Shown here: one piece after another, positions 1-11,101 of the stretch
Position numbering within the stretch: the stretch's first letter is position 1
How the letters are laid out: each line of letters opens with the position of its first letter
Virus genome (UHGV): UHGV-0355038
Direction: 5' to 3' (one strand)
Length of the DNA stretch: 12,487 nt
DNA from: a virus
Position numbers and translations under genes: made by a program
The notes under the pieces: generated by a model
Seen by the model: only the letters and a program-made list of their open reading frames with translations
What the model was told of the DNA's origin: nothing
The model's database searches: none

Positions 1-106
1 CATAGCCAAAGGTGCCTGTGTATTTTTTTGAGTTTCAATTATTGCATTTCTCACCAGCGGTGGTAGTGCATATATCGGATAAGGATTTTCTGGTGCAAGT
101 AAGCAC
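1..106 (-). CDS. small hypothetical protein, N-terminal part only (runs off window start); paralog of the 357..584 ORF
   Basis: Minus-strand translation from the ATG at 106..104 gives MCLLAPENPYPIYALPPLVRNAIIETQKNTQAPLAM..., open to the window edge. A GAGAGG Shine-Dalgarno-like motif lies about 5 nt upstream. It shares the pattern PYP.YA.P...NAIIETQ.N..A.LAM with the 75-aa ORF at 357..584. Not in the ORF track because it is partial. Confidence 0.35.
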
Positions 107-143
107 ATAAAAGCCTCTCTTTTCATTAATGGGTTAGTAAAGT

Positions 144-179
144 AGCAGCAACTCCCGCTATAATAGCGAAATAGCTGCT
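144..179. promoter_or_regulatory. palindromic operator-like site upstream of the first small-gene copy
   Basis: AGCAGC (144..149) and GCTGCT (174..179) flank a central palindrome CGCTATAATAGCG that contains a TATAAT -10-like hexamer. It is the counterpart of the better-preserved site at 620..656. Confidence 0.3.
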
Positions 180-356
180 GTTCAGACCTAATGTTCTGAG
201 AAATACAGAATATCTGTAGATCTGATGTTTAATAAACCGATAAGGTTAATTCAGTTCATACTGTGTTATTTACCACGAAATATCATTCATGTTTCTCATT
301 CTTAACACCTCCTAAAATTATTTCACTAACACCTTCCCCCCGGTCTTTTTCCTTTC

Positions 357-584
357 TCAGGAATCAGCCAGAACCATAGTGTAAATATTAACGGGCCCAC
401 GTAAATTTCCGGGGTTGCACACGTCAATCTGATTCTGACAGGCAATTGACATCGCTGTTAATAATGATGTTGTAGTCATAGCCAGAGATGCTTTTTCATT
501 GTGTTGAGTTTCAATTATTGCATTTCCAGTCATTGATGGTTGCGCATATACTGGATACGGAGTATCCGGTTTGATGTAAGACAT
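357..584 (-). CDS. small hypothetical protein (75 aa), tandem paralog of the partial ORF at 1..106
   Basis: ATG start with an AAGGA Shine-Dalgarno motif about 8 nt upstream (minus-strand sense ...AAAAAAGGAAATATTTATG). The N-terminus MSYIKPDTPYPVYAQPSMTGNAIIETQHNEKASLAM aligns with the copy at 1..106. A palindromic operator-like site lies about 36 bp upstream. Confidence 0.45.
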   Translation of the reverse strand: MSYIKPDTPYPVYAQPSMTGNAIIETQHNEKASLAMTTTSLLTAMSIACQNQIDVCNPGNLRGPVNIYTMVLADS

Positions 585-619
585 AAATATTTCCTTTTTT
601 CGTAATAACTTTCGGTTAT

Positions 620-656
620 AGCAGCTATTTCCGCTACAATAGCAACAATAGCTGCT
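620..656. promoter_or_regulatory. perfect 10-bp inverted repeat operator-like site (AGCAGCTATT / AATAGCTGCT), 17-bp spacer
   Basis: AGCAGCTATT at 620..629 and AATAGCTGCT at 647..656 are exact reverse complements. The spacer TCCGCTACAATAGCAAC holds a TACAAT -10-like hexamer. The site sits between the small ORF start (584) and the AlpA-like gene end (690). Confidence 0.4.
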
Positions 657-689
657 ATACAGACTGGATATACTGAAAATACAGACAGT

Positions 690-917
690 TCATCTGGTCT
701 GTATCCAGCAGAGAAGGTCACTTAACAACCATCCGCAAGATTTCTTTCCGATAGACTTACGTGGTGGAAATGTTCCCTCCCGTTCAAGTTTCCACGCTTG
801 TGTACGAGAAATTGACGTGATCTCATATCGTTCCTTTTCACGTACCAGTCTGTCGCATTCAATCCCATAAGCTTTCAAAATGACCAGACGCTGTTCATCT
901 GTTAATGGAAGCCACAT
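690..917 (-). CDS. AlpA-family (phage Vis/AlpA-like) helix-turn-helix transcriptional regulator
   Basis: The track ORF 690..938 begins with a TTG codon. An internal ATG at 917..915 is preceded by a perfect AGGAGG Shine-Dalgarno motif at 5-nt spacing, so I place the start there (75 aa, MWLPLTDEQ...). The C-terminal segment ITSISRTQAWKLEREGTFPPRKSIGKKSCGWLLSDLLCWIQ matches, from memory, the AlpA pattern (S.STiyR...G.FP..+.+G.+s.gW...ei..Wi). Confidence 0.6.
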   Translation of the reverse strand: MWLPLTDEQRLVILKAYGIECDRLVREKERYEITSISRTQAWKLEREGTFPPRKSIGKKSCGWLLSDLLCWIQTR

Positions 918-1608
918 ACTACCCTCCTGATATATCAATACTTTTTATTTCCGGCATGAGCATGAAATGACTAAGTTTCCCGGATAAACAATGAGTGAAA
1001 GTCACTATCATTCATCCAGCCAACACCTTACAAATAAAATGTAATACTATGATTTTTATAGGTCAAAATACTGAATTGAAATGTTAAAATGGCTTTTAAT
1101 AGAAAAAATAAAGACATATAGAACCAAATAAAAACAAGCCGCGACCAATAAAAACAAAAATTAATATTAAAAATCCATTATGACGATTTTTGTTGACTAA
1201 AATTAGGTTGGGATATATAAATAAATCCATGTGAAATTCAAACAAAGCATGGAGGAGTCGCAGGAAGGTGAAATATTTCCATCTAATTTGTGATAATCAT
1301 CACAAAAATAAGCTACAACAAGCGGAGGAAAAGACAATCTGTTGCTGAACAGACAGAAGCAGGCTACGAATGATCGGAAAATGAAGCAAATACGCTTATA
1401 CAGAAGACGCAGGGGTAACTGACGGAGACAATCACAATCAGGAGAAAATGATCGTAAATAATGTATAAAATCTCAGGATATAAACAAATGTACACAAGCT
1501 ATCCACGTAATCTGCGGCTGGCTCAGGATTAACGTTTCATTTCAGTGGACGACATCGATTCTGTCTGACAGTGGGCCAATATGTGGCAAGCAGAAAACTT
1601 CTGACATC

Positions 1609-3240
1609 ATGGTAACTCGGACAATGCAACAAAAGTATGATCGTGTTTTATCTGGCGAATCCCACCCATTCCCTGGCATATACGAGGCGGTTTCCGAACA
1701 ACTCCTTTTGCTCATCTTTAAGGCTCGTCAGCTATATCAGAATCCAGAATATCGCCCCTGGTTTGAAGAACAGCACAGAGTTCTCTCTGCATTACGTGCT
1801 AATACAGAGCTCTTGAGAATATTTAGAGAACAAAGAAACGCGGAAGAACCAGAGCTTATTATTAAAGAATCTACATTACCCCTACTCACTAATTCTAATC
1901 TTACAGATGCGCTTAATATTATGTGCCATTTATACAATGGTTTTGATGAAGGAAATATCAGTCTGAAAACCTGGGGGGCGATGCAAGAGGTACAGACAAC
2001 ATCAACCTTTATCAGCCCGGGACCGAGAACCTGGAAAACACCTGAACTGGCAAAGTTTGTAGGAGATGATTTATTTAATATTCTGACTGAATGTAAAGCC
2101 TGGAGTTCACCAATTCCAGCAGAAACCCGACAGGGCTATTGCCATCAGGATCTGTCTGTTGCACACTCCTGCACCTCAGAGTTACTGGCACACCTGAATC
2201 AATACCATGAAATTGATGAATCAGCAATACTTGCCAGAGTTATTGGTATGACGGTTAACGGATTCTACAAGAAAAATAATACAGACCTCCCAGAATGGCT
2301 ATCCCCCTTTAAAGAGGAACATAAAATATTCAGAGATTGTCTGGAGCAAAAGACCGAGGATGTAATCAGACTGAAAGAACAACTGTTGAAAACAGGACGT
2401 TCAGAATTCGTGAATAATTTGTGTCGGGTCGCCAACTGGTATGAAATTAAGTCAATATACGATGAATATGTCCGTCTTTATGCCAATGAAATCATTGGTT
2501 GGTTCAACAAAACCATGGAATATTTTAAACCAACAGATTTTATCCGATATACATGGAAATTCGCAACAGTTACTCCAGATAAAGAGACAGAAACCAAGCA
2601 TACAACTGCATGGGAAAAGGATTATTGCCAGATAACTATACAACGTGATGAACTTCTGAGATTGATTCACACGAATACCCTTCAGGATGCAGTAATTTAT
2701 CTTTGCCATTGCCTGCAGAAGAAATACAAGAAATCATCCCAAAATGAGATAGAGTTTCCAGGAATAAAACCTCCGGCATCAGAGAGTGAAATTAATATAA
2801 CAGATAATTTTGAATTTTATTCTCTCCTGGAGCTCAGTAAAGATAATGAGAGGCGGCTGGAAACATTTCAAAAATGGTATGAAAAAAATAAAGTTTTGTT
2901 AGAAAGTCATAAACAAAAACGAACAGAGAAGATTGACGTTGCCGTACGACTTGTAGGGCTGAAAGCCTATGATCTGCATGAAGGGATTCCGGATAGTCCA
3001 AAACGAAAAGTTAAAGATGGCATAAATGAAGACATCAAAGCCGATACCAGTTTACGCCTGCCAAAGACAAATATAAGTGATACGTCGCTAAACCGTTATC
3101 GCCGCACTGTTAAGGAGATTATCAATAACGAAATCGACGCATTCCTGTTGGAACAGAAGAAAAAAAATAAAAGATTTCCCTACAGTGAAGATAGAGATGT
3201 GATTCGACCTTTATGGGGAAAATGCCTGACCGGGCAGTAG
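1609..3240 (+). CDS. hypothetical protein, 543 aa, no family recognised
   Basis: Long uninterrupted ORF; antisense ORFs inside it are short. A terminator-like hairpin follows the stop. No Walker A, HExxH or other motif I can name with confidence. The start is ambiguous between ATG 1609 and ATG 1624 (no strong Shine-Dalgarno for either). Confidence 0.65.
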   Translation: MVTRTMQQKYDRVLSGESHPFPGIYEAVSEQLLLLIFKARQLYQNPEYRPWFEEQHRVLSALRANTELLRIFREQRNAEEPELIIKESTLPLLTNSNLTDALNIMCHLYNGFDEGNISLKTWGAMQEVQTTSTFISPGPRTWKTPELAKFVGDDLFNILTECKAWSSPIPAETRQGYCHQDLSVAHSCTSELLAHLNQYHEIDESAILARVIGMTVNGFYKKNNTDLPEWLSPFKEEHKIFRDCLEQKTEDVIRLKEQLLKTGRSEFVNNLCRVANWYEIKSIYDEYVRLYANEIIGWFNKTMEYFKPTDFIRYTWKFATVTPDKETETKHTTAWEKDYCQITIQRDELLRLIHTNTLQDAVIYLCHCLQKKYKKSSQNEIEFPGIKPPASESEINITDNFEFYSLLELSKDNERRLETFQKWYEKNKVLLESHKQKRTEKIDVAVRLVGLKAYDLHEGIPDSPKRKVKDGINEDIKADTSLRLPKTNISDTSLNRYRRTVKEIINNEIDAFLLEQKKKNKRFPYSEDRDVIRPLWGKCLTGQ

Positions 3241-3248
3241 ATCACTGA

Positions 3249-3280
3249 GGGGATAACAGCCCGGTTATCCCCTGTTTGTT
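3249..3280 (+). terminator. intrinsic terminator-like hairpin between convergent genes
   Basis: GGGGATAAC (3249..3257), loop AGCCCG, GTTATCCCC (3264..3272): a perfect 9-bp stem. It is followed by TGTTTGTT and starts 9 nt after the stop of the 1609..3240 ORF. Confidence 0.5.
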
Positions 3281-3326
3281 CTGCTTCAGGTTGCCAGAGC
3301 TCCAGGAACACGAGGCAATCGGCAAA

Positions 3327-3923
3327 TTATGCGGCTTTTCCATTAACAGATTCGGCCACAAGAACAACACCGTGTTTGTTTCGATCAGGATGTTCACTCC
3401 AGATTTCTGATTCAGGAATGCTTTCCCCATCATAGCAGATCCGATCACCATCAAACGGATAATACCGTGCGGAATCTGTAGCTAAGATAAACACCTTAAG
3501 ATTCGTTGAACGACGCGCTATATGCTGCCAGAGGGCTTTACCTCCTTCATATTGCTCGTTATCACTTAATAGTATAACGCCTGCTTTTGTGGCTATTGTT
3601 TCATAAACAAACGTAGCAAGGCTAACATCACGTACAGCACCATCGACAACAATCCCTTCAATCTGAGCAACGTCCTGTTCTTCCCAGAATTTCCGGACAA
3701 ACACCCCTTCAAGTCGGGGACGACGCTGAAGCTCCAGAGTGGCAACAACCTTATGGCGAATATCACCATCAATAACAGAAGGTGCAGCTTCGATTACCGC
3801 AGCGAACGGAGTCTTTGGATCCCAGATGATCTGGTAAAGCACACCCTGAATAGTTACTCCATCCAGTATCGAAAAACGACGAGCTACAGTAGCAGGGGAG
3901 TAAGACATTGGAATGACAGCCAT
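3327..3923 (-). CDS. hypothetical protein, 198 aa, no family recognised
   Basis: ATG-initiated ORF on the minus strand, convergent with 1609..3240. The composition looks like a real globular protein (e.g. ...IATKAGVILLSDNEQYEGGKALWQHIARRS...). I could not assign a fold by eye. Confidence 0.6.
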   Translation of the reverse strand: MAVIPMSYSPATVARRFSILDGVTIQGVLYQIIWDPKTPFAAVIEAAPSVIDGDIRHKVVATLELQRRPRLEGVFVRKFWEEQDVAQIEGIVVDGAVRDVSLATFVYETIATKAGVILLSDNEQYEGGKALWQHIARRSTNLKVFILATDSARYYPFDGDRICYDGESIPESEIWSEHPDRNKHGVVLVAESVNGKAA

Positions 3924-4233
3924 TTTATGGCCTAAAATTTGAAAACATCAGTATCAATACTGACCTCATCAGTCTGAGCATATATTGATAAAGTTTTTAT
4001 GTTTACACTCAATAAATACCTTACCAAACAACTAATAGCGATGTCTACATTGCCATTCGACATGCTTACAATTTTTGTCAACAAGAAAGTGAATTTATAT
4101 CAACGGTAAGAAGTAAACACGAGGACACCAAAACCAAATGTACACACTTTTGTGCTTTGTGTCCCCTGTGTGTACCCAAATGACAAACTGCAAGAAAATC
4201 TAGGCACACACTTATCTAACTTATTGATTTAAA

Positions 4234-4279
4234 TGGTGCCGATAATAGGAGTCGAACCTACGACCTTCGCATTACGAAT
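4234..4279 (-). repeat. 46-nt 3' fragment of a tRNA gene (most likely tRNA-Thr CGU, thrW-like): integration-site (att) repeat
   Basis: Minus-strand sense reads ATTCGTAATGCGAAGGTCGTAGGTTCGACTCCTATTATCGGCACCA: anticodon loop with CGT, variable loop, T-arm GTAGG-TTCGACT-CCTAT, acceptor 3' strand TATCGGC, discriminator A and CCA. The sequence 5' of it (GGATTCTTATA) does not continue a D-arm or acceptor 5' strand, so this is a partial copy and not a gene. Confidence 0.65.
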
Positions 4280-5026
4280 TATAAGAATCCGCTTCTAATT
4301 CAAAGTATTACCCCATCAACACTGTGCTCACACGTCCCACCACATCAAAACATGTAAAGCCTTGCAAGCCATTGTGAGGCCTTATGTGTCTCAGTTTTGT
4401 CCCACCTTGTATTATGACTTGCATAGCCAATGAAGATAAACGTGACGACAAACAGCGCAGCAGTCTTCTTTTCTTTCACACTTTCCCCAATCAGCATACA
4501 TACTTTCTACCATAACTGTAGTGAATGTCTGTTATGAGCGAGCAAAAGAGATTCAATTACCGGGGAATTACTCCGACATAAGCTCTCCCAGAAACACCGG
4601 AACAGCGATTCGCATATTCTCTTCTATACTTTCAGTCTGACCGGCTGGAGATTTCATAGCAAGAAAATGGATGAGCCAAGACCTATGCGGGAAAGAGGCT
4701 GAGGAAATAATTGCCGATAGCACTGTGCCCGACGAAAAGTTAATCTGGCACGCAATGACGCGCGTCCTTGGGGCATCAGGAATCAGAGAGCCAACTTAAC
4801 AACCCATTATATATTATTTAACCGGACTGTTACATGTACAAAGTTCAATGATTAGTGATTCTGTGACGCCACATACAACCTAAGCCCCTGATATAAAACC
4901 AGTCTATGCAACACCTAAAAATCATATATGATAGGGTGATAAGTCAACGCGCAGTATAAAAATTAAGCTAAAAAATGCTTTCAGCATAGTGAATCTATTT
5001 CACACTACATAATTAAGGATGAAAAA

Positions 5027-5872
5027 ATGACTGCACCAGTAATTAGTTTTATCAATATGAAAGGTGGGGTTGGTAAAACAACTTTATGCGTTGGGATTGC
5101 TGAGTTTTTAGCCAACCATATGGGGCGCAAGGTTCTAGTTATCGATATTGATCCTCAATTTAATGCCACTCAGTCCTTAATGGGGCATTATGATCGAGTA
5201 GAAGAATATATGACTGCCCTTCGCCCTAATAATCAAACCATTCGAAAGATTTTTGAGCTTCCAAATTCATTAATGGAAGATGAAAAGAAAGTGACACCAG
5301 AACAGGTCATTACTAAAGTTTCAGACAATCTTGATATTATCTTAGGTGATATAAACATTATCTTTGATACTAACCAAGAGGGTATTAGAATAAAAATGTT
5401 GCGTAAATTCATCACCGAAAATGACTTAAAAGAAAGTTACGACTATATCTTTATCGATAGCCCCCCAACAATCTCATTATTTACAGATACCGCACTCCTT
5501 GCTTCTGATTATTATCTTACTCCGGTTAAAATTGATCACTACTCGGTGCTTGGAGCAAGCAGTTTAAATAGCGTTATAAGAAATATGCGCACACATCATG
5601 AGAAAGAAATCAAGCAAGTCGGTTACATTTATACAAACACTGATGCTGAAATGACCAATAAAACAAGGGAAATTAAAGAACAATTCGAAAACCATACTCA
5701 ATTTACAAATTTTTATTTCTTTGAAAATCAATTAACCTACGTGCGTGATTTAATGGTAGGTTATCAAGGAAATATTCCTTCTTGTTATTCAAAGTCACGC
5801 CAAGATATAGAAAAGATCTGTAACGAATTTATTAACAGAGTGGCTCACTTGGAAGGTAACACAAATGAATAA
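5027..5872 (+). CDS. ParA/MinD/Soj-family P-loop ATPase (deviant Walker A)
   Basis: AAGGA Shine-Dalgarno motif 7 nt upstream of the ATG. N-terminal INMKGGVGKTT (deviant Walker A KGGxxGK[ST]), VIDIDPQ (typical ParA DxDPQ motif) and a hydrophobic Walker B-like IFIDSPP. 281 aa, no N-terminal HTH extension. Confidence 0.75.
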   Translation: MTAPVISFINMKGGVGKTTLCVGIAEFLANHMGRKVLVIDIDPQFNATQSLMGHYDRVEEYMTALRPNNQTIRKIFELPNSLMEDEKKVTPEQVITKVSDNLDIILGDINIIFDTNQEGIRIKMLRKFITENDLKESYDYIFIDSPPTISLFTDTALLASDYYLTPVKIDHYSVLGASSLNSVIRNMRTHHEKEIKQVGYIYTNTDAEMTNKTREIKEQFENHTQFTNFYFFENQLTYVRDLMVGYQGNIPSCYSKSRQDIEKICNEFINRVAHLEGNTNE

Positions 5873-6263
5873 ACAATTAATTAAAGCGCTCAATAAAGCT
5901 AATAATATGCCCATGACCAAAGAAAACTTCTTAGGCTTGGTAATTATGTTGATTCTTTCAAAAGAGGTTTTTAGATCAAATTTTGATGTTAGTAAATTTA
6001 TTAACAAAACCTTCAAAATATCTTTTTTGAATTATGCTGTACGGTCAAGAACTTTGATGTGCGCTAAAATTTGCAGACATATTAATGAATTAAGTGAGAA
6101 TGACATAAAGATGGCTTATACGCATTTCTTAAACAACATTAACACATTAGACATTATTTTTAATGATGCAAATAAAACAAGCCAAAAACCCACATCTAAA
6201 AGCAAGCATGCTATAAGGAATTTAAATATTTGGATTAATGCAAATAAAAAGGAAGAAGAATAA
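5865..6263 (+). CDS. hypothetical protein, 132 aa, Lys/Asn-rich, no family recognised
   Basis: ATG overlaps the upstream stop by 8 nt (ATGAATAA). A GGAAGG Shine-Dalgarno motif lies about 8 nt upstream. Very AT-rich codon usage shared with its neighbours. Confidence 0.6.
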   Translation: MNKQLIKALNKANNMPMTKENFLGLVIMLILSKEVFRSNFDVSKFINKTFKISFLNYAVRSRTLMCAKICRHINELSENDIKMAYTHFLNNINTLDIIFNDANKTSQKPTSKSKHAIRNLNIWINANKKEEE

Positions 6264-6928
6264 TGCTCACGCAGGATCCCTTCAACATTGGAAGAGATGT
6301 AAATTATTTTAGAGCGGAGGTGCAAAAGCACCTCAGAACCACTGATGAAATAAACAAATCAGTATCAATATTTAGGCAAATAAGTCTTTGTAATACAATT
6401 TTAAGTCACAATCCTAATCTAAATCACTCTTCTTATATAAAAGGTTTTATATATGATACCTTAAACTCCTTAATTGCCATTATAAAAAAAAGAGAACGGT
6501 ATCTCCAACTGAACTTCCGCTCAATGGTGGAGCATGTGGCCAGAATAAGCCTCAATAAGAACTACAATGGTGGGGATTTTGACCAAACTGTACGTCGTAG
6601 AGACTTTGACTTCTTAAAAGCCCAACAAGTCGATGAAGGCTGGTCTTATTTACATAATGTCTATATCAACGCCTGTTATTATGTTCACTCCTCCCCCCAA
6701 GCGAACCTAAATGTTACATCAACATTTATATCACTTATGGAGGGAGATTGTAATTCAACACAGCATAAAATGGTGAAAAAACTTCATGAGGTAGTATCGG
6801 CGCTGATGAGAATCATTATAAAGTATTATCATCAGCATATCTCAAACATTTTCTTTAGAAACAAAAAGGATTTAGAGAAAATAATGGGAAAAAGCCTTTA
6901 TTCATATTATACCAGCTTAGACAATTAA
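6263..6928 (+). CDS. hypothetical protein, 221 aa, no family recognised (speculative HEPN-like R-x4-H motifs)
   Basis: Start overlaps the upstream stop by 1 nt (TAATG). An AAGGAAG Shine-Dalgarno motif is upstream. It contains R-x4-6-H strings (RSMVEH, RIIIKYYH) that could be coincidental. Confidence 0.6.
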   Translation: MLTQDPFNIGRDVNYFRAEVQKHLRTTDEINKSVSIFRQISLCNTILSHNPNLNHSSYIKGFIYDTLNSLIAIIKKRERYLQLNFRSMVEHVARISLNKNYNGGDFDQTVRRRDFDFLKAQQVDEGWSYLHNVYINACYYVHSSPQANLNVTSTFISLMEGDCNSTQHKMVKKLHEVVSALMRIIIKYYHQHISNIFFRNKKDLEKIMGKSLYSYYTSLDN

Positions 6929-6965
6929 TTCTCTCATATTCATTGCGTAGAGCATAAATATCTAT

Positions 6966-7461
6966 CTAACCACCTAAAATGCCAGAAAATCTAGTTGTAT
7001 ACCGGTGCGAAAATATCTCGCGTTTCATCTGCCACTGCTGCTGAATGCCCTGCCCAGCGAAACAGAGTGTTTCCTTCCCGTCTTTTGCATTGAGGTGCTC
7101 CAGCACGCTCATTAACTTTTCGCTCCCAGGACCCAGCGCGTTATCGTCGAATAGGTTAGGGCATGCTCTGACTGAAGAAGTCCCCCAGCATTACCCCGGC
7201 TTTCTGATATCGGTGTCCGTCTTTCCATATTGCATCCAGACTCCCCGTTGCTACTGCAATGATATCCCGACTGTCCTGTGTCGGGATGAGCAGCTTCACC
7301 GACGCGCTGTTACAGTAGTACGACTCGTTCAACGCAAAGGGTATCGTGTAAAACCGATGATGACACTGCCGGCAATCAGCACTGACGTCAGCAAACGTGA
7401 GAAAGAACAGATAAGCCGAACGATTTAGGAAATGTTTGAAGAGACTGATATGTGGATGGTT
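6966..7461 (-). pseudogene. umuC: umuC-like Y-family translesion polymerase gene, 3' remnant, frameshifted and 5'-truncated
   Basis: Minus-strand translation gives ...FYTIPFALNESYYCNSASVKLLIPTQDSRDIIAVATGSLDAIWKDGHRYQKAGVMLGDFFSQ. After a frameshift near 7160..7175 it gives NLFDDNALGPGSEKLMSVLEHLNAKDGKETLCFAGQGIQQQWQMKREIFSHRYTTRFSGILGG-stop. This matches my recollection of the UmuC C-terminus (...HRYQKAGVMLGDFFSQ...NLFDDNA...GQGIQQQWQMKR...PRYTTR...). No intact ORF remains, and the upstream extent (possibly to about 7790) is uncertain. Confidence 0.6.
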
Positions 7462-7858
7462 TCAGTTTAAACGCCTTGAACCGTCATATTACCTAAGTAC
7501 AATCCGCTGTGACTGGCAATCATTCAATACTTGCACTATCAAAAGTGCATCAGCCAACCGCAGCACGTCTTGCATACGACCTGTCTGCGGTTTCAATCAC
7601 CTCTCACCACCAGTCCCATCAATAATAATTAAACAGCGCCTAAACAAAATAAATAACAACAAGTCAACAACCTCGACAGGATGCCGATGGGATGATGAAG
7701 AGATAAGAAAGAATAACTAGTAAAGCCCTAAAACGTCAGCGTTCAGACGCGTTTTTTACTTAACCGGTAACAAATACGTTGTATCATAGCAACATAAAAT
7801 GATTGTTCTAAATCAGATTAACTCCTCACTTTTGTACAATGTCGCTTACAGGTATACC

Positions 7859-9748
7859 ATGAAATCCGAGACGCTAACTGTCCAACAACTTTTTCAAGAC
7901 CGCCGACAATACTGTGTTCCATTCTATCAACGTGCCTATGTATGGACTCAGCGAAACCAATGGTCAGCTCTACTGGAGGATATCCTAGAGAAAGCACAAT
8001 CCCGGCTCTCGGGTACAAAACCAACTCCCCATTTCCTTGGTGCAGTGGTACTGGAACCTCAACCAAAAAAAGGATTATTCGGTGTAGATTCCATACATAT
8101 TATTGATGGTCAGCAACGATTGACCACTCTTCAATATGTTCTGGCATCCATCCGATTAGCATTACGTGCGACAGATCTTTCCAACTTAGAGCCTCTCATT
8201 TCGTCTTGCCTGAAAAACTCAAACGAAGACACAATGCGAAATAAAGAAGTAGAGCGCTTCAAACTGTGGCCAACTTTTCGGGATCAAACTCATTTTATTC
8301 AAAGTTTTAATGTTGAAAATATTGACGATATCCGGAATGTATTCTCTGATAGTTTCACGCAGCATGGTACGTTGCGTAAGCATTTTAATCACCCGCCATC
8401 ACTAGAAGCATTATGTTTTTTTACTGAAGCCTTTATAAAGTGGATTAAAATAGAAAATCACTCACCACGAGAAAATGCTGTAGCATTAATTGAGGCTGTC
8501 TTGACGGATCTGAAACTAGTAAGCATATTTCTCGAGGCTGAAGATGACGCTCAAATAATTTTTGAAACATTAAATGGCAGAGGTGCGGAACTTCATGCCA
8601 CAGATCTTATTCGCAATTATATTTTTATGTGCGCTGAACATGAAAATATTAATGCTGTTGAATTATATGAGAATGAGTGGAAGATCTTTGAAGATACGTA
8701 CTGGTCAGAAAGACAACGTCGTGGTCGTATTAATAAACCACGCATGGAGTGGCTAGTGCATGCAACATTGCAATCAGAAAGGCAACGTGAAATCGATCTG
8801 TCTCGTCTTTACAATGAGTATCGTGATTATGTAAGTAAGGACTTGCCTTCACAACGAGCAGATCTGCAAGTAAAGCGCCTCAAACAATATGCATCACAAT
8901 ATAAAGAATTGGTTGGTGGTTTTGGCACAACCCCCATCTCACACTTTGGACATCGCATCGCAGCCTATGATGTGACGACACTTTATCCGCTTGCTTTGTT
9001 CATTTCGATAGCTAACATCGCCGATGATGAGAAAGCAGCCATGTATAATGATCTTGTCTCCTACGTAGTACGAAGAGCCGTATGTGGCCTGACGCCAAAG
9101 AATTACAACAATGTATTTATGAATGTATTGCGGCACTTGTCTAAAACAGAAATTTCCAGTGTTGAGTTACGTAATATCCTCAATAGCTTAAATGGCGAAG
9201 CCTCACGTTGGCCTGGGGACTCAGAATTTCTCAACGCTTGCATCAATGCTCCACTTTATCCTGGCAGGCTCGACGCACCGAAAATGCGCTCAATGTTAAC
9301 GGAACTTGAAAGAGAACTTTGTCGCCAAGTGAAGACAGAGAAGCCTGATGTTCCAAATCTTTCTAACCTCGATATCGATCATCTTATGCCTCAAAGTTGG
9401 TATTCCTGTTGGCCTCTCGAAAATGGTCATATAGTGACAAATTCAGATGCTACGGTATTGAACCAAATTGTTCTGTCTGGAACCGATCTTACCCCAGAAC
9501 AGCTACTGGTAAGGAAACGGCAACAAGCGATAGCTACGTTGGGAAATCTAACTTTGCTTAACCTTAGCGTAAACCGTTCTGTTCAGAATGCTGTATTTCT
9601 GAAAAAACGTGATGCTCTCATCGTCCACACCAATCTACGACTGAACATTCCACTTATAGTTAAGGATAAATGGGATGAGGATGAAATCCTGGAGCGGGGT
9701 AAAAAGTTGGGGGAAATTGCATTGAAAGTATGGCCAAAACACGATTAA
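7859..9748 (+). CDS. GmrSD-family putative type IV (modification-dependent) restriction endonuclease: N-terminal DUF262 (ParB-like NTPase) plus C-terminal DUF1524 (His-Me finger nuclease)
   Basis: N-terminal YCVPFYQRAYVW and IIDGQQRLTTLQ (the DGQQR signature of DUF262). C-terminal LSNLDIDHLMPQSW (DUF1524-like D-H..P.S nuclease motif). The track ORF starts at ATG 7799; I prefer the in-frame ATG at 7859 (AGG 9 nt upstream; the conserved block then starts near residue 18), but 7799 is possible. Confidence 0.75.
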   Translation: MKSETLTVQQLFQDRRQYCVPFYQRAYVWTQRNQWSALLEDILEKAQSRLSGTKPTPHFLGAVVLEPQPKKGLFGVDSIHIIDGQQRLTTLQYVLASIRLALRATDLSNLEPLISSCLKNSNEDTMRNKEVERFKLWPTFRDQTHFIQSFNVENIDDIRNVFSDSFTQHGTLRKHFNHPPSLEALCFFTEAFIKWIKIENHSPRENAVALIEAVLTDLKLVSIFLEAEDDAQIIFETLNGRGAELHATDLIRNYIFMCAEHENINAVELYENEWKIFEDTYWSERQRRGRINKPRMEWLVHATLQSERQREIDLSRLYNEYRDYVSKDLPSQRADLQVKRLKQYASQYKELVGGFGTTPISHFGHRIAAYDVTTLYPLALFISIANIADDEKAAMYNDLVSYVVRRAVCGLTPKNYNNVFMNVLRHLSKTEISSVELRNILNSLNGEASRWPGDSEFLNACINAPLYPGRLDAPKMRSMLTELERELCRQVKTEKPDVPNLSNLDIDHLMPQSWYSCWPLENGHIVTNSDATVLNQIVLSGTDLTPEQLLVRKRQQAIATLGNLTLLNLSVNRSVQNAVFLKKRDALIVHTNLRLNIPLIVKDKWDEDEILERGKKLGEIALKVWPKHD

Positions 9749-9839: not shown

Positions 9840-9971
9840 AGCCCTAGGTTTCGGACTTTGTACCGCTTATCTTGTCTTCAAAATCAGCTCGCATCCTGCA
9901 CAGTTCAGCGCATTACGTTGTAGATCTGTGTTCTGGTCATTTGTTGATACGCGAACATAGCCAATAAGCAT
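9840..9971 (-). pseudogene. pin: Gin/Pin/Cin/Hin-family serine DNA invertase, N-terminal stub only
   Basis: Minus-strand ATG at 9971..9969 translates MLIGYVRVSTNDQNTDLQRNALNCAGCELI, the near-invariant invertase N-terminus containing the catalytic-serine region (VRVST). A 1-nt loss in a T-run then shifts the frame (LKTR-stop); the +1 frame still reads FEDKISGTKSE before a TAG. Homology ends around 9830 where the GmrSD cassette begins. Not in the ORF track (too short). Confidence 0.7.
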
Positions 9972-10000
9972 GATAGCTCCTCCTGACAAAAACAGGAACG

Positions 10001-10474
10001 ATGCCATTTGCGCGCTATTTCTGCATTTTCATAAACGTTCAATTGGGAGAAGCGGCAAAACGGGATGTCGGAACCGGTAATAATCAACTCCCGGACATGT
10101 CCGCATTTGGTATGTCGCGAAACGGACAAACTGCCTGGGATATTCTCCCAAATGGTATGATTCGACAGGTTGGTACTGTGACACTGACGCCTGTTGGTAA
10201 TTTCAACGCAATTACTCTTGGTGGAGTGCTGTACTACACCCATTACTACAGGGTTAATTTCCCCAGACAATTCCCAAATGCACAAATAGCAACGCTGGCA
10301 ACACTAGCGAGTTACAGCTTTTCGACCCAGTCATCAATGGCTGGGAAATCACTGGCAACGCATCGCGATACTGATTCTGGCACTGACGTATCAAGAACGC
10401 GATTCACTGTGTCGTATACGACACCCAATCTCGGCGAAATTCCGACTTTGCATTTTGAAGCAATAGGATACTAA
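10001..10474 (+). CDS. alternative tail-fibre C-terminal (receptor-binding tip) cassette, S'-like, inverted relative to the expressed fibre gene
   Basis: 157-aa ORF; the frame is open from 9977. Its beginning ...INVQLGEAAKRDVGTGNN... parallels ...NALQLGTAATRDVGADNA... inside the minus-strand fibre gene, and both end in A(I/L)GY. The cassette has no obvious promoter or Shine-Dalgarno motif of its own. Confidence 0.55.
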   Translation: MPFARYFCIFINVQLGEAAKRDVGTGNNQLPDMSAFGMSRNGQTAWDILPNGMIRQVGTVTLTPVGNFNAITLGGVLYYTHYYRVNFPRQFPNAQIATLATLASYSFSTQSSMAGKSLATHRDTDSGTDVSRTRFTVSYTTPNLGEIPTLHFEAIGY

Positions 10475-10476
10475 AT

Positions 10477-10710
10477 ATGGAGAATATGTATTTCAGCCCA
10501 ACGACCGTTGGTTTTTATGTTTCTGAACAAGAGCGACCTGATGATGCGGTTGAAGTCTCGCCAGAGGTGGAGGCATTTTTGAGGGAGTGTGTTATCTGGG
10601 GAGCGGATACATTTAACGTAGAGCGAGATGCAGCAACGGTGACATATCCAACAGAACTGCTTGAATATGTCACCACCTACAACGCCCCCGTTAAATATCC
10701 TGCGGATTGA
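10477..10710 (+). CDS. small ORF downstream of the S' cassette, U'-like (alternative tail fibre assembly chaperone), possibly truncated
   Basis: ATG 2 nt after the S' stop (TAA-at-ATG), the same spacing as the fibre/Tfa junction on the other strand (TAA-ga-ATG). It is 77 aa, and its 3' end overlaps the 3' end of the minus-strand Tfa gene by 20 bp. The assignment is by position; I see no family motif. Confidence 0.4.
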   Translation: MENMYFSPTTVGFYVSEQERPDDAVEVSPEVEAFLRECVIWGADTFNVERDAATVTYPTELLEYVTTYNAPVKYPAD

Positions 10711-11101
10711 CAGGCCATACGGGTTTTGCTGTATCAACGCGCATCAGCAAGACCCGGTATTTTTTCCATTCAGATAACGCGGCGGTTTCTTCTGCCGTCG
10801 CGATTTCCGCATCAAAAGCATCCTGTCTCCAGGCTATTTCCTTATCAGCCATAGAACGCAATACCGTTCTTTTCTGTTCAGCCTGAATAATCTGTTGTTC
10901 AGCGGAGAGTGGCGGGATATCAATCCACGCAGGATTACCATTTTTATCAGCCCCCAGCGTTTTGCCTTGTGGCGCTACGCCTGTGTAAATTGCCATTGTT
11001 TCATCATCAACATCAACGCCATTTTCAGGCCATGAACCGGCGCTGATATATACCTCTTTTAGTGCTTTCGGATAGAAAGAGCCTTTATAAAATTTATTCA
11101 T
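10691..11101 (-). CDS. tfa: tail fibre assembly protein (lambda Tfa / Mu U family)
   Basis: C-terminal ...[27 protein letters not shown]... matches, from memory, the conserved lambda Tfa C-terminus (...[25 protein letters not shown]..WP). I place the start at the ATG at 11101, which is 2 nt after the fibre stop with GGGG upstream; the track ORF from 11131 would overlap the fibre gene. Confidence 0.75.
   Translation of the reverse strand: [136 protein letters not shown]

Follow-up and report, generated by a model that had tools for sequence, protein, structure and literature searches.

A ParA-type ATPase gene heads a compact, AT-rich operon within the cargo of a lambdoid prophage. The operon occupies positions 5027-6928 of a 12,487-nucleotide stretch of the virus genome UHGV-0355038 (the window, by which we mean the whole stretch analyzed), and a first-pass annotation, made from the letters of the window alone, left its second and third genes unassigned and offered two readings: an undescribed defence or abortive-infection module, or an unusual partition-like cassette. 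Our comparisons indicate that this Escherichia coli operon very probably belongs to the RemAIN family, a system of three proteins, carried by temperate phages, that acts against phages and competing prophages and was first published in 2024 from Salmonella Gifsy-1 (Sargen and Helaine, Cell Host Microbe 32:2063). As the system is already known, the locus is a diverged member in a different prophage slot and not a new kind, and the notion of an undescribed system is refuted by the exact primer matches and protein identities given below. The guess at a defence or abortive-infection function is upheld by homology to RemAIN, which is experimentally defined in Salmonella.

Identification of the operon

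The operon comprises three genes, at the positions first reported:

5027-5872, + strand: gene 1, remA-like, encoding a ParA/Soj-type deviant-Walker-A ATPase of 281 amino acids (aa)
5865-6263, + strand: gene 2, remI-like, encoding a small, basic, helical protein of 132 aa (isoelectric point 9.8)
6263-6928, + strand: gene 3, remN-like, encoding a HEPN-like helical protein of 221 aa, the predicted anticodon nuclease effector

None of the three reading frames is interrupted, and the catalytic motifs are preserved. The tight coupling described in the first-pass annotation is evident at both junctions, as genes 1 and 2 overlap by 8 nucleotides at ggaaggtaacacaaATGaaTAA, where a GGAAGG Shine-Dalgarno motif serves gene 2, and genes 2 and 3 by a single nucleotide at aggaagaagaaTAATG, with AGGAAG; each of the three genes is preceded by its own purine-rich Shine-Dalgarno sequence. 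The trio is also AT-rich relative to its surroundings, as was claimed, with a guanine-plus-cytosine (GC) content of 0.331 against 0.414 at 4233-5026, 0.505 in a umuC remnant, 0.413 in a neighboring GmrSD gene and 0.470 in tail-fibre DNA (that is, 33% against 41-51%). Taken with the conservation documented below, the three genes are one tightly coupled operon conserved as a unit.

According to Bosma et al. (2025, PMC12724215), the immunity region of Gifsy-1 in S. Typhimurium 14028 holds a three-gene locus, remAIN (STM14_3218-3220), which blocks the lytic cycles of co-resident prophages and of incoming phages. RemAIN has since been termed 'an anti-phage defence system' with anticodon nuclease activity, in which RemA is an ATPase, RemI an immunity protein and RemN a HEPN anticodon (tRNA) nuclease, and its tRNA targets differ from those of HepS, another Gifsy-1 nuclease considered below (Sargen et al., 2026, PMC13043305). 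Literature searches did not lead to the system directly. The link to the present operon arose because the surroundings of related Salmonella-type loci such as L034, in a group of viral contigs at 50% identity, were recognized as a Gifsy immunity region: the trio follows directly on a cI-type repressor and is flanked by cII and O to one side and by recE/recT to the other. The published remAIN primers were then tested against these loci. Among the Golden Gate cloning and check primers in Table S2 of Bosma et al. (2025), the reverse primer core AGGAATAATTATGCC matches exactly at L034 4773-4787, over the Shine-Dalgarno sequence and ATG of the ATPase gene, the forward primer core GGTTAAATTAGAGGTGTTAGTTC matches exactly at 6657-6679 on the minus strand, over the stop codon of gene 3, and the check primer matches exactly at 5177-5197, inside the ATPase gene. 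Because the cloning primers bracket ATPase to nuclease, the cloned fragment corresponds exactly to the Salmonella-type trio, which by primer match and locus context is the published remAIN.

The window proteins are homologous to those of the Salmonella trio throughout, sharing 65% identity in the ATPase, 33% in the middle protein (expectation value 4e-22) and 50% over the full length of the third (8e-89). The two operons also have in common their three genes in the same order, overlapping or abutting frames, carriage by lambdoid prophages, and an Rx4H motif in the third protein (RSMVEH in the window, RSMIEH in Salmonella). They differ in position, in that the window copy lies between SRAP and umuC remnants whereas the Gifsy copy immediately follows a cI-type repressor, and in that the RemI- and RemN-like proteins of the window are strongly diverged, much more so than the RemA-like ATPase. 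On account of this uneven divergence, the trigger and tRNA targets of the window system may differ from those in Salmonella.

That the system looked new is explained by the databases, since PADLOC 2.0.0 (released in 2023 and predating RemAIN), Pfam and NCBIfam 20.0 hold no RemAIN model. PADLOC 2.0.0 gave no significant full-length system match for the trio, the ATPase alone showing a P-loop-local similarity to PDC-M28B (1.9e-06 over residues 3-42); the same scan recovered the GmrSD neighbor.

Features of the three proteins

Gene 1 matches the Pfam AAA_31 model at 7.9e-38, and also the CbiA, ParA and MipZ models, as well as phrog_164 ('ParA-like partition protein') at 2.2e-57, and its nearest solved structures are Soj/ParA proteins (1e-18). 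Its motifs are NMKGGVGKTT, which supplies the signature lysine (K12) and the Walker A lysine (K17), DIDPQ at residues 40-44 (D40 and D42, Walker A') and FIDSPP at 142-147 (D144, Walker B); none of K12, G13-T19, D40, D42 and D144 varies among the 14 trio ATPases compared, which come from two phyla. By profile and motif, gene 1 thus encodes an ATPase of ParA/Soj type in which every catalytic motif is preserved and which is predicted to be active, and the deviant-Walker-A assignment made at first sight was correct.

Gene 2 carries an invariant S61-R62-T63-L64 motif, a disordered linker at residues 100-110 and a C-terminal helix with an invariant tryptophan (W123). It has no profile match in Pfam or NCBIfam and one weak, low-complexity match in PADLOC; genes 2 and 3 otherwise match two PHROG families of unknown function only. 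A fold search with gene 2 returned generic helical bundles alone, and neither this search nor the Pfam scan revealed a helix-turn-helix (HTH), ribbon-helix-helix (RHH) or ParB-like fold, in keeping with the earlier remark that the operon has no evident ParB/ParG-type partner.

Gene 3 has no match in NCBIfam or PADLOC, and none in Pfam at expectation values up to 1; a Foldseek search against the Protein Data Bank (PDB) found nothing significant, and profiles of the family found nothing meaningful among the sequences of solved structures. Its structure model is nonetheless confident and shows a HEPN-like helical fold, with the motif R86-S-M-V-E-H91 and a second conserved stripe at Y134/C138/H142. 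The Rx4H spacing fits the Rx4-6H of RNase-type HEPN proteins expected of RemN, and gene 3 is therefore best described as HEPN-like and predicted, by model and analogy, to be an anticodon nuclease. The view that gene 3 is unassignable does not hold, as it has a HEPN-like model and is homologous to RemN; gene 2, though homologous to RemI, lacks a fold match.

The wider gene 3 family departs from the window sequence at the His of the Rx4H motif. In an alignment of 88 relatives (A5), Asn stands in place of this His at residue 91 in 77% of members, and other members have Gly, Gln, Ser, Ala or Leu there. No variation is seen at R86, E90, Y134 and H142, and almost none at K38, D65, S87, R94 and C138; most family members may, on this pattern, use a non-canonical active site. 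HEPN families, including those like MAE_28990/MAE_18760, are absent among the 25 Pfam families listed for these relatives (a further 52 weak, one-member families fall outside that list), and the C-terminal extensions of some relatives hold no recognizable domain.

Conservation and genomic context

Homologues of genes 2 and 3 were collected, followed by an exhaustive profile search for gene 3, which yielded approximately 100 clusters at 50% identity, nearly all of them stand-alone proteins of 215-235 aa. We scored 49 loci, drawn from E. coli, a circular lambdoid phage filed as a plasmid, Erwinia, Clostridium scindens, Dickeya, Enterobacter, Yersinia, Cronobacter, IMG/VR contigs and metagenomes. 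In all but one, which ends at a contig edge, the ATPase, the small protein and the protein of approximately 220 aa occur in the same order and orientation; close coupling of the reading frames is retained across loci, and metagenome contigs found later show the same order wherever they are long enough. The trio thus co-occurs far beyond chance and is conserved as a unit outside the window. Given that the C. scindens proteins retain 45% (ATPase), 35% (middle protein) and 23% (third protein) identity to those of the window, purifying selection is evident from conservation across phyla.

The family extends further into Firmicute phages. In Streptococcus phage Javan1 (L060, MK448665) the trio lies between repressor and integrase, where an unannotated ORF (open reading frame) at 4399-4740 on the + strand encodes a remI-like protein of 113 aa, with the SRT motif and a C-terminal Trp. 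This ORF lies between an annotated 'partitioning protein ParA' and a hypothetical protein, and because it is remI-like, Javan1 carries a full RemAIN-like trio. Lactococcus phage PLg-TB25 has a more distant copy.

Distribution in E. coli is patchy. Among 5,426 complete E. coli genomes, 68 carry the trio (52 of the window type and 16 of a second type, with none carrying both), and 67 of these 68 copies are chromosomal. The 52 window-type operons are at least 99% identical, with genes mostly uninterrupted. Salmonella-type trio proteins occur on at least 1,000 contigs, a search of species-representative genomes found one locus, and hardly any deposited phage genome contains the trio.

Temperate phages of both phyla carry the trio within modules for accessory functions or lysogeny, in a variety of slots. 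In Cronobacter, as in the circular E. coli phage, it adjoins int; it lies between SRAP and intact umuDC in Enterobacter and beside a second integrase in Dickeya. In four C. scindens prophage loci it has a sigma-70-region-4-like regulator on one side and the genes for the small and large terminase on the other; the Salmonella-type copies occupy the immunity region directly after the cI-type repressor. Proximity to defence genes is seen in several of these contexts: GmrSD in the window, HsdR, ZorC and a ZorD/DpdE-like protein in Cronobacter, and a TIR protein in Erwinia; a mad3/AriA-like ABC ATPase is also among the neighbors. In the Cronobacter loci L016 and L019, the DNA directly 3' of the trio (11387-19505) encodes a type I HsdR-like protein, ZorC (EH signature) and a ZorD/DpdE-like SNF2 helicase, with no ZorA or ZorB in that interval. 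Small unknown genes replace this block in the sister strains L017 and L018, and the block looks like a variable defence hotspot.

The operon is also repeatedly broken. Insertion sequences (ISs) disrupt it in three E. coli lineages, the ATPase gene being hit by IS903B and gene 3 by IS3 and by IS1A (L057, NZ_CP025950; L058, NZ_CP049081; L059, NZ_OZ501671), and in Dickeya (L009) IS1 lies in the ATPase gene, while the Erwinia ATPase ORF (L004) is frameshifted and split. These independent disruptions suggest that the system is costly or frequently lost.

Upstream DNA and prophage setting

Features in the DNA preceding the operon are as follows:

4885-4903, + strand: element CCCCTGATATAAAACCAGT, of the form CTG-N9-CAG, a candidate promoter or operator approximately 140 nucleotides before the remA-like start
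4921-4932: perfect 12-bp palindrome ATCATATATGAT, 3' of the upstream element
4955-4960: TATAAA, 3' of the palindrome

The first of these has the consensus CCCCTGATAwAA-N3-4-CAGT and recurs 95-142 nucleotides 5' of the ATPase start in three divergent enterobacterial trio clades, which differ in the genes further upstream; it may be the promoter or operator of the operon. The element resembles a LexA box, but in E. coli that box has the spacing CTG-N10-CAG, and because the element is one base short of this, its designation as an SOS box was rejected.

The window matches the E. coli chromosome NZ_CM192148 end to end, and its prophage features are these:

4234-4258, - strand: att repeat, in which the last 25 nucleotides of tRNA-Thr (thrW) recur exactly; left boundary of the prophage
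4659-4799, + strand: C-terminal remnant of an SRAP/YedK-like protein (SOS-response-associated peptidase), ancestral cargo outside the system
within 6966-7428, - strand: frameshifted umuC (DUF4113) remnant
within 6966-7428, + strand: dinI remnant
7799-9748 (RefSeq start 7859), + strand: intact GmrSD type IV modification-dependent restriction enzyme (DUF262/GmrSD_N and GmrSD_C)
9850-11101: invertase remnant with oppositely oriented tail-fibre C-terminal (gp53-like) and tail-fibre-assembly cassettes

The att repeat matches the annotated tRNA-Thr beside the prophage integrase (L056, 23616-23640), a match of which none is expected by chance, and thrW with this integrase lies approximately 46 kb from the repeat in the window. 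A tRNA-like stretch extends from the repeat to approximately 4279; ARAGORN found no complete tRNA in the window, and Rfam and tRNA scans of it gave zero hits. As the DNA block common to E. coli genomes begins at 4217-4233, next to the att repeat, the operon is the first cargo inside the left att site, with tail-fibre genes and the remaining lambdoid prophage to its right. The carrier is thus, on these landmarks, a lambdoid prophage integrated at thrW with the operon at its att-proximal end, which bears out the location first proposed, between tail fibres and an att repeat. In the circular phage the sequence of features runs int, attP, SRAP remnant, trio.

The restriction-like neighbor noted at the outset is the GmrSD gene, which scores 1436 bits against the PADLOC mREase_IV model; as this intact gene adjoins the trio region, the prophage holds two adjacent defence modules. 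GmrSD sits between the dinI and invertase remnants, and the operon itself is flanked by decayed SOS and DNA-damage-tolerance cargo, the equivalent of 4659-4799 being labeled in RefSeq as 'SOS response-associated peptidase, missing N-terminus'. An intact equivalent is present in Enterobacter (L010/L011), in the order SRAP, trio, umuC, umuD, resolvase and tail fibre, and GmrSD appears to have replaced part of the SOS cargo in E. coli. The interval 9850-11101 looks like a decayed invertible host-range switch.

Alternative explanations and related systems

Several points weigh against the assignment to RemAIN. The allocation of RemA, RemI and RemN to the three genes relies on secondary descriptions and primer mapping; the defence experiments concern the Salmonella system; the window slot is the att-proximal 'b region' beside umuC and SRAP remnants and not the Gifsy immunity region; and the remI-like protein is only 33% identical to its counterpart. 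Moreover, the change from His to Asn in the Rx4H motif across 77% of the wider gene 3 family clouds the catalytic mechanism there.

Among other explanations, the partition-like cassette would use the ATPase and an adaptor to segregate or position the phage genome while excised or episomal, in the manner of type Ib ParABS or of the Soj proteins of integrative and conjugative elements. The kinship of gene 1 to ParA/Soj is bona fide, many ParA partners are small and basic as gene 2 is, and the operon adjoins att or int in several phages; indeed, type Ib ParA-ParB/ParG systems likewise pair a small deviant-Walker-A ATPase gene with a following gene for a small basic protein. They differ from the window operon, however, in their centromere repeats and DNA-binding partner fold, and the window operon has a third, HEPN-like gene and is carried by a prophage. 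A search for iterons over 4100-7200 found no centromere-like or iterated repeats but only short, two-copy repeats at chance level, gene 2 shows no HTH, RHH or ParB-like fold, and a single record in 72,556 plasmid records carries the trio, that record being itself the circular genome of a lambdoid phage that encodes an integrase. Every carrier is either an integrating phage or an island, and experiments in Salmonella have defined the homologue there as a defence system whose effector is a nuclease. We therefore rejected the partition cassette, for which repeats, a DNA-binding partner and plasmid carriage are all wanting, as exceedingly improbable. We regard as very unlikely a role in the phage life cycle apart from immunity, such as late gene expression or packaging: its placement just 5' of the terminase genes in the four C. 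scindens loci might be read in this way, but the slot varies between immunity region, int-proximal, att-proximal and repressor-integrase positions, the operon is missing from almost all deposited phage genomes and often disrupted where present, and its Salmonella homologue has a demonstrated defence role. Somewhat less improbable, but still unlikely in our estimation, is that the operon is a RemAIN homologue that no longer defends, being either decaying cargo or a pure toxin-antitoxin addiction module that stabilizes the prophage. The decay of the surrounding umuC, dinI, SRAP and invertase genes, the IS insertions in several E. coli lineages and Dickeya, and the frameshifted Erwinia ATPase gene would all accord with this, as would the finding that remAIN did not restrict phage FO1 in S. 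Typhimurium LT2, so that its activity is context-dependent. Against this stand the intact frames and preserved catalytic motifs of the window, its near-identical and mostly uninterrupted counterparts in 52 E. coli genomes (at least 99% identity), and the purifying selection evident across phyla.

Among related systems, HepS (STM14_3211; PMC13043305) is likewise a prophage HEPN tRNA nuclease that causes abortive infection, and it shares its Salmonella prophage with RemAIN. It acts alone, however, without an ATPase or immunity partner, responds to the tail-tip protein J as activator and is reported to be independent of RemAIN; compared by description, it was set aside as a homologue of gene 3, being a separate Gifsy-1 gene that acts solo. 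GiPD474, from Gifsy-1 of S. Typhimurium 4/74 (PMC12724215), is a prophage ParA-fold (AAA_31-type) ATPase that confers phage resistance and occupies the immunity-region slot held by remAIN in other Gifsy-1 variants. It is, by description, a single gene of 1,086 nucleotides with an extra domain of unknown function and without RemI or RemN, and its authors report no DNA-level homology between it and remAIN (PMC12724215). The predicted toxin-antitoxin dyads of ParA/Soj and HEPN (MAE_18760) proteins resemble the operon in placing an ATPase beside a HEPN protein with a proposed role in controlling an RNase, but consist of two genes without the small middle gene, and are a computational prediction (Anantharaman et al., 2013, PMC3710099). 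In the type VII MNT-HEPN (MntA/HepT) system the partner is a nucleotidyltransferase that AMPylates the toxin, in contrast to the ParA-type ATPase and small helical protein found here.

Proposed mechanism and significance

If the window operon works as a RemAIN system, the lysogen would make all three proteins together, with the RemI-like protein keeping the RemN-like nuclease silent and the ParA-type ATPase acting as a nucleotide-dependent switch or sensor. Replication of a competing phage would release the nuclease, which would cut specific tRNAs, and the resulting arrest of translation would abort the infection. This mechanism is inferred for the window copy from the Salmonella system by analogy, and agrees with the 2013 prediction that ParA/Soj ATPases control adjacent HEPN toxins (PMC3710099). 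We also tentatively entertain a broader possibility, which we consider less likely than not to hold in full: that the RemAIN family reaches far beyond the Salmonella example, that most members, possibly including the window copy, have a non-canonical active site with other targets and triggers, and that the release of the nuclease might be linked by the ParA-type ATPase to the DNA state of the cell. This view is based on the presence of the trio in phages of both Enterobacterales and Firmicutes (Clostridium, Streptococcus, Lactococcus) in at least four genome slots, and on replacement of the canonical HEPN His in about three quarters of the approximately 100 clusters.

The main value of these findings lies in annotation. 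RefSeq still labels the three products as a 'ParA family protein' and two 'hypothetical proteins', and because Pfam, NCBIfam 20.0 and PADLOC 2.0.0 are without a model, RemAIN goes uncounted in the 68 of 5,426 complete E. coli genomes that carry the trio; the alignments A1, A4 and A5 could seed such models. The locus adds a second E. coli-type RemAIN variant in a prophage slot other than that of Gifsy, and leaves the basic picture of the system unchanged. The family now extends to Firmicute phages, including the previously unannotated remI-like ORF of Javan1. How those members that lack the HEPN His function becomes a question of interest.

Adjacent island and chromosomal arrangement

To the left of the att repeat (1-4216) lies a different, CP4-6/CP4-57-like island, in tandem at thrW, with AlpA at 690-938 and YfjI/DUF3987 fragments. 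Two further genes of this island are a 543-aa ORF at 1609-3240 (+ strand), with no Pfam, NCBIfam or PADLOC match and a weak PHROG match only, and a 198-aa ORF at 3327-3923 (- strand), which matches only phrog_7522, of unknown function. One end of the combined prophage and island abuts the lsr operon and the other thrW-proA (L002 1-3000 and L056 23616-26174, respectively). As lsr and thrW-proA are far apart on the E. coli K-12 map, this arrangement suggests a chromosomal rearrangement in this lineage.

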